Of a stretch of DNA of 36,018 bases, positions 17,995-23,296 are shown piece after piece. The position numbers were made by a program, and so were the translations under genes. The DNA is from a virus. Location: UHGV virus genome UHGV-1420163, one strand, 5' to 3'. The notes beneath the pieces were generated by a model. That model was not told the DNA's origin, searched no databases, and saw only the letters and a list, made by a program, of their open reading frames with translations. Position 1 is the stretch's first letter. Every line of letters starts with the position of its first letter.

Positions 17995-19494
17995 TTAAGT
18001 TCTCCGTGCGATGGGCCTGATTGGGGCTGGTATCTTTTTCTCTTTTGGTTTTTTGATGTCGCGCATCATTTTGGCGAAGCGGCGCATCATGTATGCATAG
18101 CGAACGGCTGAGAGAACGTCGTCGTTAAGCTTGACGATCTTCCCGTTTTCATCACGGTGATAGAGGCGGAACTCCTCAAAGAATGGCTCACAGGTGTTGA
18201 ATACTTTGAAGCGACCATCGAGCATCATGTCGCGCAATTCAGTGATGCCAGGCTCCACAGCATTACCGCCATCAGGCCATGTCGCATGCTCCTGCAACAT
18301 CATAAAACCAGCGTCTGCATACTGCCCTTTGAGCTGCTCACCGCCGCCCTTCTCATGCTGGTTTCCGTCATGAGGCCATGCGGTTGGCACTTTATGCGCC
18401 CATGATTTAACAGCTCCCCATGCCTGAACAGCTGTTTTTTCTTTCGCCTTCCACACGCGTGAAACGTAGATTGTGTCTGCGTCCTTATCCCACCAAAGCT
18501 GAACCTGCGCCTGTGGGTGATCCCATCCGAAATCCATCCCGCCAATTACGTAGAAGTGATCAGGACACTCGAACGGCTGACACTTAATAGTCTCTTCCGG
18601 TATCTGGAAGATTCGACCACTACCCATTGTAGGAATACCGCGAGCACGCGCTTCTCTCTCATGCTCAGGATAGGATGCGATGATTTGCTCTTTCTGCTCG
18701 TCGGTATAGTGCTCAGCGTCATAGATGGTCATGTTGACCACTTTCTGCGACTTGCTGGGATTCTTCAGGAACTTGGTAACAACGTCAGACATCCCCATCA
18801 GCGGGGTAAACGTCAGAATTGAGAATTGCCCGTATTTGTTGGTACGGGTAAGACCTTCGCCATAAATGCTGTATGGTGGCTCTTCGTCAAACCACACGCC
18901 GTGGATTGTGTCACCCTGCCAGCGAGCACGGCCTTGCGAGTATGGTTTGAAGTAGCAGATTGAAATGCCATCTTCAACGCCATCAGCCGTGTGATGCTTA
19001 ACCAGAAGATGATCAACAAGGTTCGGAAAGAAAGGAGACTTCTTCCAGCTAATGATGTCTTCTTTCGGTATGGAACCGTAGCCTGGCTCGTCATTCTCTT
19101 CGATACGACCGCACAGGATGCGTTGAGTCGTTTTGGTTACAGTCTCGTTTGTCTCGCCGCCAATCCAGAAGACAACAGGCTCATAGAAACGCTTACCTTT
19201 CCACTCCCCACCATATTTACCATCAGCCGGATAGCCTTTTGTGCCCGGATAACGCCCGGTAAGGTGAAACGCGACTTCAGCAGCACCAGTAAATGACTTA
19301 CCAAGCTGGTTACCAGCCATAAAACATCGCTCTGGATAGTCATGTCCGGCGTCGATGAACTCACGCTGTTTGCTGTATGGCGTAAATTCATATAGCAGGT
19401 GTGTGTTCCGGTAGTACTCTTCTTCTTCGAGTAGCTCGAGCAACTCGATTTGCTCTTCGTCGCTCAGGTTATCAAGAATCGCGTCCAGTTCCAC
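17995..19494 (-). CDS. Terminase large subunit, P22 gp2-like (499 aa)
   Basis: Same length as P22 gp2; sits between small terminase and portal. Confidence 0.9.
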
Positions 19495-19960
19495 GGTTGA
19501 ATAGCTCCTTGATACGAGAGCGCCGCTTATCGCGATCTCCCTTATCAGGTGTCACGTCTTCAACTTGCGACTGCTCTTTGAGGCCCAAATCACGGGCGAT
19601 GATGTTAGCGTTGAGAAGGTCAGCGGCTGCGCCAGAGAATTTCTGATCGTAGATGATGTCTTCCGCTCGTGATGTGACGTCAGAAAAACCTTCCATTGAC
19701 CGGAAGGTTCCCCATGTTTGCCTGGTGATATCAAGGAAGGTACACAATCCTGAAATAGTCATGGCTCGCATCTTAGGGACATTAGCCTTAATTATTTCTC
19801 CCTGATATGAAAATACCTTACCCTCCCATAGCGGGTTATCATCAGCCCACTCGAAGTATTCACAACAAGCAGCCCACAGCGCCTCAGGCGATTCGAATTT
19901 AGGATTTCGCCCATGACTACTGCGGGCCTCCCAAAATCGGTTGCCCTTTGGTGCTGCCAT
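19472..19960 (-). CDS. Terminase small subunit, P22 gp3-like (162 aa)
   Basis: [40 protein letters not shown] matches recalled P22 gp3. Confidence 0.9.
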
Positions 19961-20054
19961 ATTGATTATTTCCCTTCTGCTTGCTTATCCCGTTCATCGC
20001 GGAATTTGGATGGGTTGTCGAAGCCCTGAGAGCCGGAACAAACTTTGATTACCA

Positions 20055-20249
20055 TTACTTAGCTCCTTCCTGCTTGCCTGTGTTTGATGTCGTTTCAGTA
20101 GCAGCCCAAGAGCAATTAATGCTACCCGCAACACCATATCCATAACCAGTCTTGAAGAAATTGTTGCCAGTAAATTGTTTAACAATCTTCCCGCAGCACG
20201 GGCAGCGTTGGCATTGGCAATAAGGGGATTGATTATTCCAGTGATGCAT
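20055..20249 (-). CDS. Small Cys-rich protein (64 aa, CxCxxCxCC), tentative
   Basis: ATG at 20249 preceded by AGGAG at ideal spacing; overlaps the upstream gene by 17 nt; ends just before terS. Confidence 0.35.
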   Translation of the reverse strand: MHHWNNQSPYCQCQRCPCCGKIVKQFTGNNFFKTGYGYGVAGSINCSWAATETTSNTGKQEGAK

Positions 20250-20622
20250 CTTGTTTCTCCTGAATGAATGGCAGGAAGTGATTAACCATCCTGTCCAGCA
20301 TGTAACAGTACGTCTCGTTGGCATCTTCAGGCCTTGTCGTCACGCCGACATCAGAGCAAACGTAAAAGCAGACGTGGGCGCGCTCATGAACGAGCGTAGC
20401 GATCTGCTGATCGAATACTCCAATCAGATAGCATCGCTCACCCGTATCAGTGTTTTCATAGTTGCTTGCAAGCCCAAGATTGAATGGCTTCTCATCCCCG
20501 CTGCCGCCAAGGAATTTATCAGCGTGCTGAAACTGTTCTCTGGTTGTTGCGAGGTAGACGTGTGCACTTTGAAACAGCGGAATGGTGAACGCCGGGAGTT
20601 TGTGCCATTTGGCCTTAGCCAT
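20233..20622 (-). CDS. Hypothetical protein with HExxH motif (129 aa), possible small metallopeptidase
   Basis: LVHERAHV motif; tightly packed after the 80-aa gene. Confidence 0.55.
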   Translation of the reverse strand: MAKAKWHKLPAFTIPLFQSAHVYLATTREQFQHADKFLGGSGDEKPFNLGLASNYENTDTGERCYLIGVFDQQIATLVHERAHVCFYVCSDVGVTTRPEDANETYCYMLDRMVNHFLPFIQEKQDASLE

Positions 20623-20623
20623 A

Positions 20624-20866
20624 TCACACTCCAGCGGTGAACAGGTCTAACGCTTCCTTCGATTTACGCACCGCTTCGATAGTGCGGGTCGTGATATCTG
20701 AATTAGCGCCGCCTGACTGGAAGTGAATTTTGAATAGCTCAAGCTTCAGCTCGTCAGTACCAATGAACTGAAATGCTTCCTCTGCGGCTGCGTTCTGGTT
20801 CATGACCAGCTTGTAAATCTCTAGCTGGAATTTCTGTTCTTCAGTCATGGGAATAATCTCTGCCAT
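20624..20866 (-). CDS. Hypothetical 80-aa protein
   Basis: ORF with GGAG RBS; one nucleotide upstream of the HExxH gene start. Confidence 0.5.
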   Translation of the reverse strand: MAEIIPMTEEQKFQLEIYKLVMNQNAAAEEAFQFIGTDELKLELFKIHFQSGGANSDITTRTIEAVRKSKEALDLFTAGV

Positions 20867-21218
20867 TGTTGGCTCCGTTTATCCGTTAAAAGGGATATCA
20901 GTTAAGTTATCCCGTGTAGGGTATAAGCCATTGTCGAGACCACTCATTGAATGGCCTCTGCAATAACCGATGTCTTTCCATCAGTCCGCCACCACAAAGA
21001 ATCTTTTTTGCCATAAGGCTGGAGGTTCATCTTTCAGTGGCTGCCAGTGTTATTTCCCCACTTTCTGGCTTGGGTTGTTTCGCTGTACTGCCGCAACTGG
21101 TGGTGCACAGATTTAGTTAAATCTGTTCTCGCCTGAACTATCTTTTACATACCCGGATTGTGGGGATGTAAATCACGGTTTCATTATCAAGCCCACCCGT
21201 AGATGAGCTTTGGAATGG

Positions 21219-21737
21219 TCACTTTGGCAGTCCGGGGATCGATATTTGCGCCTGCTGCTCAAGCCTTTCGATTCTTGCTATGAGTTGCGGTTTTTTGATC
21301 CTGCCCCAGCGGTTCAGCAAGCGTCCTGACATACTGGCAACATCCTTTTCCTTCATGAACTCCAGCATTAACTCGTTGTGCTCTCTTTGGTATGAGTGAG
21401 CCATCTCCATCAGCCTGTCACGCATCCAATTAAATGCTTTGATAAACGCCTCTTTGATGGCGGCAGCTTTTTTGCCGGTAAACGACATGATGATGTACAT
21501 CGCGCCGTCTTTGGAAATTTCATATTCAACATACTGATTACCCTTGTGTTCATAGGTAACCCGCGAAAAGTTGCTGGTTAGAAATTCATCCGAACAGTCT
21601 AGCTTTTCGATTTTCTGAATGATGTGGTGATGCTGCTTGTCGAAGTAAGCTGCTACCTTGCGGGAGGTTGTGATCACGCGATCACCAGAAACAACCACCA
21701 TGTCCCGGAAATCGAGATTAGCCAATTGATGATTCAT
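21219..21737 (-). CDS. rha: Rha-family phage regulatory protein (172 aa from ATG 21737; track GTG start at 21773 has no RBS)
   Basis: Position after the lysis genes as for rha in P22; family call from recalled Rha-domain features. Confidence 0.65.
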   Translation of the reverse strand: MNHQLANLDFRDMVVVSGDRVITTSRKVAAYFDKQHHHIIQKIEKLDCSDEFLTSNFSRVTYEHKGNQYVEYEISKDGAMYIIMSFTGKKAAAIKEAFIKAFNWMRDRLMEMAHSYQREHNELMLEFMKEKDVASMSGRLLNRWGRIKKPQLIARIERLEQQAQISIPGLPK

Positions 21738-22078
21738 AGCGTCTTTACCTTTTAGAAAGTGAGCCTGTCTCACAGAAAAGCCGCCCGAGAGAGGTCGCCA
21801 CCTATAACGGCATTTCTCAGGCTCGCTTACTGAAAGGCTCTCGTTAATATGCGCGTGAGATGCGCTGTGAAATTCAGATATAAAAAGCCCCGCGAATGCG
21901 AGGCTAAATCCTGGTATTTGTAATGACTGGCTCTTATCTCAACGCAGCCCCTTACCGCGCGCCAGATGCTCAATATCAAGCATCAGCAATGAGATGTTTA
22001 ATCTGGATTCACTCCAGAAGTGATCATCACCCTGTCTACAGAGCCAGATGTGAAGGATGATGAGTAAAATTATCGCTA

Positions 22079-22516
22079 TCATCGAAGGCATTGCGTCCTG
22101 ATGTACTCCTGCAGGTAGTTAACCTGCGCGGTTATCCTGTCGATTCCACTTCGGAGACGGTAATAATTGAGTTCAGCATCTGCTGTAAGTCTTGGGCTTT
22201 CTCCATCGCCCATGCTGCTGGCTCCGGTCGTTGACTTTGCACAGGTGGCGGCGACTTGCAGGCGCTTACGACCAGCAGAAACATCAGCACGGAGACTTTC
22301 GATAGTCGCGTTAGCATCAGCAAGCTCCTTTGTGTATCTGGCGTCGAGTTCTGCTACATCACGTTGACGCTTCTGCATGTCAGAGATGATGGATGTGGCT
22401 TTATCGCGCTGTTCTTTATAGGCGATGGCGTTATCACGGTAATGATTAACAGCCCATGACAGACAGACGATGATGCAGATAACCAGAGCGGAGATAATCG
22501 CGGTTACTCTGCTCAT
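22079..22516 (-). CDS. Rz: Rz i-spanin
   Basis: N-terminal transmembrane segment, coiled-coil body, directly downstream of the endolysin. Confidence 0.85.
22132..22323 (-). CDS. Rz1: Rz1 o-spanin lipoprotein embedded in Rz
   Basis: Alternate frame inside Rz; lipobox LLVVSAC followed by a Pro-rich segment. Confidence 0.75.
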
Positions 22517-22989
22517 ACCTCAATCTCTCTGACCGTTCCGCCAGCTTCTTTGAATTTTGCAATCAGGTTGTCAGCCTTATGCTCGAACTGACCATAACCA
22601 GCGCCCGGCAGTGAAGCCCAGATATTGCTGCAACGGTCGATAGCCTGACGAATATCACCGCGGTCAATCATCGGTAAAGCGCCACGCTCCTTAATCTGCT
22701 GCAGCGCAACAGCGTCCTGGCTTTTGGGAGAGAAGTCTTTCAGGCCAAGCTGCTTACGGTAAGCATCCCACCAACGGGAAAGAAGCTGGTAACGTCCGGC
22801 TGCTGTTGATTTGAGTTTGGGGTTTAGCGTGACAAGCTTGCGAGGGTGATCGGAGTAATCAGTGAATAGCTCTCCGCCAACAATGACGTCATAACCATGA
22901 TTTCTGGTTTTCTGTCGTCCGTTATCAGTTCCCTCTGACCACGCCAGCATATCGAGGAACGCCTTACGTTGATTATTGATTTCCACCAT
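22513..22989 (-). CDS. R: Endolysin, lambda R-type lytic transglycosylase (158 aa)
   Basis: [51 protein letters not shown] closely matches recalled lambda R. Confidence 0.95.
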
Positions 22990-23296
22990 CTTCTACTCCG
23001 GATTTTTTAGCAGCGAAGCGTTTGATAAGCGAACCAATCGAGTCAGTACCGATGTAGCCGATGAACACGCTCGTTATATAAGCGAGATTGCTACTTAGTC
23101 CGGCGAAGTCGAGAAGGTCACGAATGAACCAGGCGATAATGGCGCACATCGTTGCGTCGATTACTGTTTTTGTAAACGCACCGCCATTATATCTGCCGCG
23201 AAGGTACGCCATTGCAAACGCAAGGATTGCCCCGATGCCTTGTTCCTTTGCCGCGAGAAGGGCGGCTAACAGGTCATGTTTTTCTGGCATCTTCAT
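22973..23296 (-). CDS. S: Holin, lambda S-type (107 aa)
   Basis: [39 protein letters not shown] matches recalled lambda S107. Confidence 0.9.

Follow-up and report, generated by a model that had tools for sequence, protein, structure and literature searches.

A putative metallopeptidase gene of the Orf-129 family in a mosaic late-operon region of a P22-like prophage

The closest described counterparts of the locus considered here are the late operons of P22-like phages. Phage P22 has rha, orf25, orf80 and orf59c in this interval, and phages ST64T and L carry in it a gene named Orf-129, whose relatives are all annotated as unknown in function. We analysed a stretch of 36,018 nucleotides (nt), virus genome UHGV-1420163 (this whole stretch is called the window below), which is a P22-like (Lederbergvirus) prophage or phage of E. 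coli. The interval of interest, 20055-21218, lies between rha and the terminase gene terS. A sequence-only reading had described it as a cassette of three tightly overlapping small genes, encoding a protein of 80 amino acids (aa), a 129-aa protein with an HExxH motif and a 64-aa cysteine-rich protein, with a palindrome upstream. Direct reading of the DNA confirmed its coordinates, the HERAH motif, the CxCxxCxCC cluster and the inverted repeat. However, the locus is not a new three-gene module. It is a new member of the known, uncharacterised Orf-129 family in an ordinary mosaic region.

The explanation that we consider likely is that the interval is a usual mosaic accessory region of the P22-like late operon, whose parts assort independently. 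The 129-aa protein would be a minimal gluzincin, the cysteine-rich open reading frame (ORF) an unselected frame, and the palindrome a messenger RNA (mRNA) hairpin.

The HExxH protein

The features on which this part relies are as follows.

20233-20622, minus strand: gene of the 129-aa protein, Orf-129 family, phrog_1365
20374-20388, minus strand: HExxH motif HERAH, residues 79-83, within a predicted helix (74-91)
20314-20316, minus strand: codon of E103, the predicted third zinc ligand, at the start of a predicted helix (103-128; N102-E103-T-Y-C-Y)

The protein gives a full-length match to the phrog_1365 profile (residues 1-126, E = 8.6e-36) and is about 60% identical to Orf-129 of ST64T and phage L, ORF47 of ST104, gp70 of epsilon34, and others. 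A word-indexed search yielded 206 close homologs, and an exhaustive profile search 852 clusters at 50% identity, nearly all of them standalone proteins of 110-140 aa. Five residues, H79, E80, H83, N102 and E103, are invariant among 41 close homologs. Among 129 homologs at 23-49% identity only H79, H83 and E103 are invariant, and E80 is conserved in at least 90%. Since these positions are retained in so divergent a set, the HExxH motif is beyond chance, and an active enzyme would be expected to show such conservation. H83 and E103 are 20 residues apart. The same spacing to the Glu zinc ligand is seen in thermolysin. The sequence-only reading had called the motif typical of zinc metallopeptidases and had named a lack of its conservation among homologs as one outcome that would speak against its reading; the motif proved to be conserved, the downstream Glu is invariant, and the predicted order of the fold is zincin-like.

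The zincin core has been described as a small beta-sheet, an N-terminal helix, the HExxH helix and a next helix with a zinc-binding Glu (Iyer et al. 2017, PMC5512222). An AlphaFold (AF2) model on the homolog alignment has a predicted local distance difference test score of 85 and a predicted template modelling score of 0.80. Its strands (b) and helices (a) follow in the order b11-13, b20-25, a28-37, b50-56, b63-69, a74-91 (HExxH), a103-128 (Glu), and this order, b-b-a-b-b-a(HExxH)-a(Glu), agrees with the zincin core of PMC5512222. As in gluzincins, the conserved HExxH is helical, the Glu ligand is on the next helix, and a beta-sheet with a backing helix precedes the active-site helix. The N-terminus (MAKAKWHKLPAF) is not signal-like, and the protein has no signal peptide. 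Judged by conservation and by the model, the 129-aa protein is very probably of zinc metallopeptidase type, and the reading that we prefer is that of a small cytoplasmic gluzincin-type metallopeptidase from the late operon. H79 and H83 of the HExxH helix, together with E103 of the next helix, are predicted to hold zinc; E80 would activate water and act as the base in peptide hydrolysis.

Comparison of the model with the BFVD database by Foldseek gave 31 neighbours at E <= 1e-3, from very diverse phages. The few named ones are called SprT-like, PolyVal metallopeptidase, IrrE (TM-score 0.34, poor) and metalloprotease.

It is very unlikely that the protein is a non-catalytic zincin-like fold, serving in binding or as an inhibitor, in this copy or family-wide. 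The observations in that direction are that no significant match to solved proteases was found for the 129-aa protein, that E80 is not strictly invariant, and that codon 81 (20380-20382) encodes Arg in the window copy and Cys in at least 90% of the close homologs (HERAH versus HECAH). Among eight E. coli copies, R81 occurs only in the window and in E. coli strain 44, the other six having Cys. On the other hand, exactly the three metal ligands are invariant in 129 divergent sequences, and the catalytic Glu is present in at least 90% of them.

SprT and ImmA/IrrE had been suggested as folds to be checked, and Pfam supports neither assignment. The SprT-like family (PF10263) is the only recurrent Pfam signal and is always below threshold, being observed in 26 of the 41 close homologs (best E 0.036) and in 18 of the 129 divergent ones (best E 1e-4); the window protein has no match even at E <= 5. 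The third His of SprT/WLM (Wss1) proteins and their C-terminal zinc-ribbon or Cys4 are absent from the residues invariant in the 129 homologs. No match to Peptidase M78 (PF06114) was observed among the 41 and 129 sequences scanned, and there is no adjacent helix-turn-helix (HTH) repressor gene, the neighbours being DUF2560 and terS. A single weak NCBIfam match, to an aKG-HExxH hydroxylase (E 0.03), was rejected, as it spans only the HExxH stretch.

Genomic context of the Orf-129 family

The interval and its flanks are 95-98% identical at the nucleotide level to many P22-like phages of Escherichia, Salmonella and Shigella, and prophages identical to this degree are present in 2570 of 5426 complete E. 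coli genomes. All genes here are on the minus strand, and the order is holin, endolysin, Rz, rha, DUF2560, the slot of the 129-aa gene, terS, terL.

22973-23296, minus strand: holin
22513-22989, minus strand: endolysin
22079-22516, minus strand: Rz
21219-21773, minus strand: rha
20867-21218: non-coding spacer of 352 base pairs (bp) between rha and the 80-aa gene
20624-20866, minus strand: 80-aa gene (DUF2560), ortholog of P22 orf80, HK620 hkbM and Sf6 gp67
20055-20249, minus strand: 64-aa cysteine-rich ORF, a doubtful gene
19961-20030, minus strand: terS leader of about 70 nt, which delimits the inserted segment (129-aa gene and about 200 nt) on its downstream side
19472-19960, minus strand: terS
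17995-19494, minus strand: terL

The genes are indeed tightly packed, but they do not all overlap: the stop codon of the 80-aa gene and the ATG of the 129-aa gene are separated by one nucleotide (TGA-T-ATG), and the sole overlapping pair in the interval is the 129-aa gene and the 64-aa ORF (17 nt). No promoter-like or terminator-like sites were found in 19900-21900, and no covariance model of Rfam 15 matched at E <= 1 in 19400-22200. The base composition shows no sign of foreign DNA, with a GC content of 0.45-0.51 across the region. The 129-aa gene would be transcribed in the antiterminated late mRNA, closely packed behind orf80. Given the late strand and the tight packing, the protein is expected to be made late, with the lysis and packaging proteins.

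Most P22-like prophages have only about 80 nt between DUF2560 and terS, and no 129-aa gene there. In the window the 129-aa gene and about 200 nt are inserted between the DUF2560 gene and the conserved terS leader. This version is carried by 14-18 of the 5426 complete E. coli genomes. Among 82 IMG/VR P22-like loci with DUF2560, any gene of the Orf-129 family is present in four and missing from 78. Conversely, Orf-129 homologs occur without DUF2560. In eight further independent phage contexts, with at least four terminase types, the homolog lies within or between the lysis and terminase genes. It follows Rz and precedes terS or head genes in Citrobacter, Klebsiella, Yersinia, E. coli and metagenomic phages; one homolog, in one phage, lies between terS and terL, and one, also in a single phage, between a DUF7940 gene and the endolysin gene, with overlapping stop and start codons. 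The downstream neighbours vary, being the decoration gene dec/Orf-134 in ST64T and L, and a 46-aa Lys-rich ORF with a 110- or 156-aa gene in Citrobacter and Klebsiella. The family as a whole spreads from P22-like to crAss-like phages and phages of Pseudomonas, Ralstonia and Acinetobacter. Thus the three genes do not form a cassette: DUF2560 and Orf-129 each occur alone and the downstream slot holds unrelated genes elsewhere, so the parts assort independently.

The 129-aa gene is extra cargo relative to P22 at this locus, as had been proposed. However, P22 has a paralog of the HExxH protein elsewhere. An unannotated intact ORF of about 119 aa (BK000583, 13861-14190), located between sieA and orf59a on the late-operon strand, reads MKKVNIGNVPKM...HECAH...ANETYCY... 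and is equivalent to hkcC of HK620. The P22 and HK620 paralogs are 34.5% identical to the 129-aa protein over 113 aa. Several P22-like phages have two or three copies of the family; the window has one.

Two features were observed at the C-terminal side of family members. In Citrobacter and Klebsiella prophages (L016, L019, 2874-3014) the conserved, very Lys-rich 46-aa ORF starts at the same overlapping ATG as the 64-aa cysteine-rich ORF of the window, to which it is unrelated. Some longer homologs, of 170-190 aa, have Lys/Arg-rich C-terminal tails; in those of 170-180 aa the basic tail ends with YVPRVMSFKRG or a close variant (P0116, P0129, P0133). The Lys-rich ORF and the basic tails may represent a nucleic-acid-binding or targeting partner.

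One possibility is that the 129-aa protein is a DNA-dependent protease similar to SprT, Wss1 and Spartan, clearing bound or cross-linked proteins from concatemeric DNA before or during packaging. This would explain the place of the gene beside the terminase genes, and it is in line with the homolog between terS and terL, with the basic tails of the 170-190 aa homologs and with the 46-aa Lys-rich ORF. SprT-like is also the only recurrent, although sub-threshold, Pfam signal and the name of some records and BFVD neighbours, and Wss1 and Spartan are classed as minigluzincins (PMC4559962). However, the window protein itself has no SprT match, its third ligand is Glu, with neither a third His nor a zinc-ribbon, it has no basic tail, and the ORF downstream of it is Cys-rich, not basic. 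Moreover, the gene is dispensable in most P22-like phages. Altogether, we consider this model quite unlikely.

Another possibility is that the protein acts on a phage protein, such as a lysis regulator, scaffold, terminase or ejection protein, or on lysis timing. The position beside or inside lysis cassettes and beside terminase genes is recurrent, in one phage with overlapping stop and start codons between the DUF7940 and endolysin genes, and the P22/HK620 paralog comes just after the ejection-protein genes. The zincin domains of DdrB of phage P1 have been proposed to process packaged proteins (PMC5512222). On the other hand, the partners differ wholly, with four terminase types, different lysis genes, and podovirus as well as other morphotypes, which makes a conserved phage substrate unlikely. 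Most P22-like phages with these lysis and head genes lack it, and P22 virions mature without proteolysis. No mention of Orf129 was found in the main text of the phage L paper or in its account of virion proteins, although not all of the nine extra proteins detected are named there. A phage target is therefore improbable.

Under the explanation preferred here, the 129-aa protease would cleave a host or competitor protein late in infection, contributing to accessory fitness or counter-defence, and would not process a virion protein. We infer such a target, and not a virion one, because the gene is dispensable and moves between phages with unrelated structural and lysis proteins. A more specific version seems doubtful, although it has some chance. 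According to it, the Orf-129 family is an unrecognised class of standalone minimal gluzincins that cleave either a host immunity or stress sensor of late phage products (capsid, portal, terminase) or a competitor protein, as counter-defence at the lysis/packaging junction. On a JGI metagenome contig (L156, 3242-3520 and 4001-4651) a distant 216-aa member of the family belongs to a cluster of small genes and follows, at a distance of three genes, an Acb2/Tad1-hairpin (PF24729) gene.

The DUF2560 gene, the cysteine-rich frame and the spacer

The 80-aa protein is a full-length DUF2560 protein, matching Pfam PF10834 with E 1.1e-43 (147.7 bits versus the cutoff of 25; model positions 1-72 of 72) and phrog_571 with E 6.6e-41. 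In E. coli prophages the gene is labelled "DUF2560 family protein" by PGAP. It is preceded by GGAG 7 nt upstream of the ATG. P22 orf80, HK620 hkbM and Sf6 gp67 occupy the same position, upstream of the terminase genes. Being an ortholog of P22 orf80 in the same place, the 80-aa gene is a core P22-like late-region gene and not extra cargo, contrary to the sequence-only reading. What differs is the gene that comes next: in P22, HK620 and Sf6 it is orf59c/hkbN (59-63 aa), whereas in the window it is the 129-aa gene. No solved structural relative of the 80-aa protein was found, and neither this product nor the 129-aa and 64-aa ones matched the PADLOC hidden Markov models of defence proteins at E <= 0.1.

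A 35-aa ORF (MAKKILCGGGLMERHRLLQRPFNEWSRQWLIPYTG) at 20907-21014 on the minus strand, upstream of the DUF2560 gene, matches the N-terminal extension of "Orf-118" of ST64T, where it is in frame with DUF2560. The start of Orf-118 is probably annotated too early; otherwise, a stop codon in the window splits the ORF.

The cysteine cluster of the 64-aa ORF is C11-x-C13-x-x-C16-x-C18-C19 (20193-20219). Its ATG is preceded by AGGAG at a distance of 7 nt, inside the 129-aa coding sequence. In 5.8 billion proteins only five clusters of homologs were found, all at least 88% identical over the shared part, three of them with different C-termini caused by indels. All copies are restricted to near-identical E. 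coli prophages. As every copy is at least 88% identical, the conservation of the cysteine cluster cannot be judged. A tblastn search of 50,697 phage records found nothing, and no family match was obtained in Pfam, PHROGs, NCBIfam or PADLOC. PGAP never annotates the ORF in E. coli prophages, while Prodigal-type callers predict it.

Fifteen copies can be aligned. Past the stop codon of the 129-aa gene they contain 11 substitutions, of which 10 are non-synonymous and one is synonymous in the cysteine frame. Three copies have frame-breaking indels, one of them inside the cysteine cluster, in a prophage without the 129-aa gene. Because of this 10:1 ratio, the indels and the lack of distant homologs, the ORF is probably not a conserved gene; a lack of its conservation was among the outcomes that the sequence-only reading had named as refuting it. 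Most likely it is a lineage-restricted, unselected frame in junction DNA.

A genuine, recently acquired micro-protein, for instance a metal-binding one, translated by coupling to the 129-aa gene, is unlikely but conceivable. It is consistent with the AGGAG box, with the same ATG opening the conserved 46-aa ORF in Citrobacter and Klebsiella, with the five cysteines kept intact in the 12 uninterrupted copies of the 15, and with the predictions of Prodigal-type callers. It is at odds with the substitution ratio, which is more even in the +1 frame, with the indels in three of 15 copies, with the lack of homologs below 88% identity in either frame in the 5.8 billion proteins and in phage genomes, and with the absence of any family match or PGAP call.

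In the +1 frame over 20055-20232 (ORF 19994-20185, minus strand; peptide ...RLVMDMVLRVALIALGLLLKRHQ...) the same copies show six synonymous and five non-synonymous substitutions. In the metagenomic variant P0125 a 1-nt deletion fuses the cysteine N-terminus to this frame. The +1 frame (63-84 aa, with a hydrophobic stretch) was not adopted as a real gene: the pattern is not significant after correction for the number of frames, and there is no good start codon or Shine-Dalgarno box. It has no independent homologs, only the near-identical metagenomic ORFs P0125 (the frameshift fusion) and P0267. The pattern could be due to chance or be a trace of an older gene.

One more frame is found directly downstream.

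19966-20055, minus strand: 29-aa mini-ORF (MVIKVCSGSQGFDNPSKFRDEWDKQAEGK), overlapping the stop codon of the cysteine ORF (TAATG) and called by some gene finders

The mini-ORF is probably not a gene, because its 3' two-thirds are the conserved terS leader. Only this 3' part (19961-20030) is present in most relatives, in which DUF2560 directly precedes terS. More than 200 E. coli genomes have the leader with about 96% identity, ahead of the gp3-type terS as well as of a 141-aa terS-like gene that is unrelated to it and is paired with a PBSX-type TerL. The predicted RNA folding of the leader is not unusual (z +1.2), and it may serve as a boundary sequence in recombination or in the initiation of translation.

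The spacer between rha and the 80-aa gene is made up of short mosaic blocks, has two junctions and contains the following elements.

21189-21210, minus strand: hairpin 1, AAGCUCAUC-UACG-GGUGGGCUU in the sense RNA, directly after the rha stop codon
21144-21172, minus-strand RNA: hairpin 2, within the indel segment
21107-21126, no strand assigned: the palindrome ACAGATTTA-GT-TAAATCTGT, best read as hairpin 3; arms of 9 and 9 nt, an 8-bp stem and a 4-nt loop in the minus-strand RNA
about 21112-21170, no strand assigned: indel segment of about 59 nt, carrying the palindrome and hairpin 2
about 20956-20968, no strand assigned: mosaic junction defined by BLAST breakpoints, empty in the window

The last of these is a slot that is filled in other E. 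coli prophages and in Sf6 (L004, L006, L007, L008, L011, L012, L013), where it contains genes of the Gp49 family, DUF551, GIY-YIG nuclease, KilA-N and S1-peptidase.

The repeat described as a near-perfect 20-bp palindrome is indeed at 21107-21126, but its form is that of two perfect 9-nt arms with a non-palindromic 2-nt centre. The window has 16 comparable inverted repeats, among which it is listed as I15, and five perfect ones of at least 9 nt, of which it is one and of which about four are expected by chance according to our own estimate (36 kb x ~31 spacings x 4^-9). Another repeat of the same geometry (9 + 9 nt with a 2-nt gap) is inside a coding region of the window. Of 129 related loci, 48 have the indel segment and 81 (63%) lack it; the segment was also seen as an indel in an alignment with HK620, Sf6, ST64T and E. 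coli prophages. Of 46 scorable copies of the palindrome, 23 are perfect, 20 have an A to G change (17 + 3), and three have an additional loop-proximal mismatch. The A to G variants break the dyad of the DNA and keep pairing, as G-U, only in the sense (minus-strand) RNA. This argues against an operator for Rha.

An operator function of the palindrome was rejected since it is missing in 81 of the 129 loci, asymmetric in 23 of the 46 copies and at chance level in the window; the regulator site of the sequence-only reading is thus not borne out. An intrinsic terminator was rejected as well, the stem being AT-rich, with no T-run on either strand and no terminator-like site in the region scanned. 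Hairpin 1 has no U-tract, so it is not a terminator, and it has no Rfam match; it is found in 128 of the 129 related loci, behind many different upstream genes. Almost all changes in its stem are C to U on the 5' arm, giving U-G pairs in the sense RNA only, and its loop varies. The sense RNA of 21090-21218 folds with -39.3 kcal/mol (z -3.7), and none of 200 shuffles was as stable. The palindrome is better described as probably one of three mRNA stem-loops in an indel-prone linker, not as a DNA operator. Its role, if any, would be in mRNA processing or stability, or as a recombination boundary.

These data also bear on the proposal that the 80-aa, HExxH and cysteine-rich products form one host-takeover or anti-defence cassette controlled via the palindrome, e.g. 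by Rha. The tight packing on one strand, the location in a known hot spot of variable genes and the one distant HExxH homolog three genes away from an Acb2/Tad1-family gene could be taken in its favour. However, the components assort independently, the cysteine ORF is unselected and often disrupted, and 81 of 129 loci retain the flanking genes but lack the palindrome. The palindrome also has variants with a broken dyad, is at chance level and adjoins no promoter-like site. In addition, there are rha prophages with different downstream content, and HK620 and Sf6 have the palindrome without rha. Such a cassette is extremely unlikely.

Strength of the reading and comparison with known systems

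Several observations weigh against the explanation of the interval as a mosaic region with a gluzincin gene, an unselected frame and an mRNA hairpin. No Pfam or NCBIfam model matches the 129-aa protein above threshold. A profile of the 41 close homologs had no match among PDB sequences; only the broader profile of 129 homologs gave borderline astacin-type matches, to myroilysin (E 0.002-0.004, the alignment spanning the entire N-terminal subdomain), with astacins matching more weakly. The C81R change in the window copy is unusual, and the literature searched assigns no function to any member of the family. The host-directed role is only what we infer from the sequences, and its sole contextual hint, the Acb2/Tad1 neighbourhood, concerns an anti-defence role. 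As regards the cysteine ORF, the strong Shine-Dalgarno box, the positionally conserved ATG and the intact cysteines leave room for a real micro-protein. Finally, the folding z-score and the restriction of changes to wobble pairs suggest that the hairpins are real, but in a covariation test on all three the changes were confined to one side of the stems (wobble) and did not differ from those in shuffles.

Should the 129-aa protein be an active protease, it would stand for a phage accessory enzyme that is very common yet unstudied. The model phages L, ST64T, epsilon34 and HK620 carry members of its family, and there is the unannotated P22 paralog, so genetics for finding the substrate is readily available. 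That the gene keeps its place between lysis and terminase genes in phages that are otherwise unrelated points to a role late in infection. The orf80 gene, the cysteine-rich ORF and the palindrome add nothing new in themselves; they show how mosaic junctions of lambdoid late operons create module-like combinations of short ORFs and hairpins.

Among the known HExxH systems, ImmA/IrrE (M78) proteins resemble the 129-aa protein in being small, phage-associated and of HExxH...E type. However, they pair with an HTH repressor in the immunity region, whereas the 129-aa gene is in the late operon without a repressor neighbour. SprT, Wss1 and Spartan are small HExxH proteases of similar size, and some homologs of the Orf-129 family have basic tails; the window copy has no third His, no zinc-ribbon and no DNA-binding region.

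The metallopeptidase (MPTase) domains of polyvalent proteins (PMC5512222) have the same order of core elements, are phage-borne, and one BFVD neighbour is named after them. However, they are domains of giant multidomain proteins that are injected or packaged, whereas the 129-aa protein is a standalone protein of about 125 aa, and the likeness observed is one of predicted fold order.

HkcC and the P22 paralog are like the 129-aa protein in having HECAH and ANETYCY intact and in lying on the late-operon strand. Unlike the window copy, they are in the immI region after gene 16, and the window has the pre-terminase copy only. The closest counterpart is Orf-129 of ST64T and L, with ST104 ORF47, epsilon34 gp70 and the proteins of SE1 and UAB_Phi20 (gp24), which agree with the 129-aa protein in length and in the HExxH...NE residues. 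The E. coli version is about 40% diverged from it, with HERAH instead of HECAH, and 3' of the gene dec/Orf-134 of L and ST64T is replaced in the window by junction DNA with the cysteine-rich ORF. Yet the locus is the same in ST64T, L and the window: after the lysis and orf80-like genes, before terS, and on the strand of the late operon.

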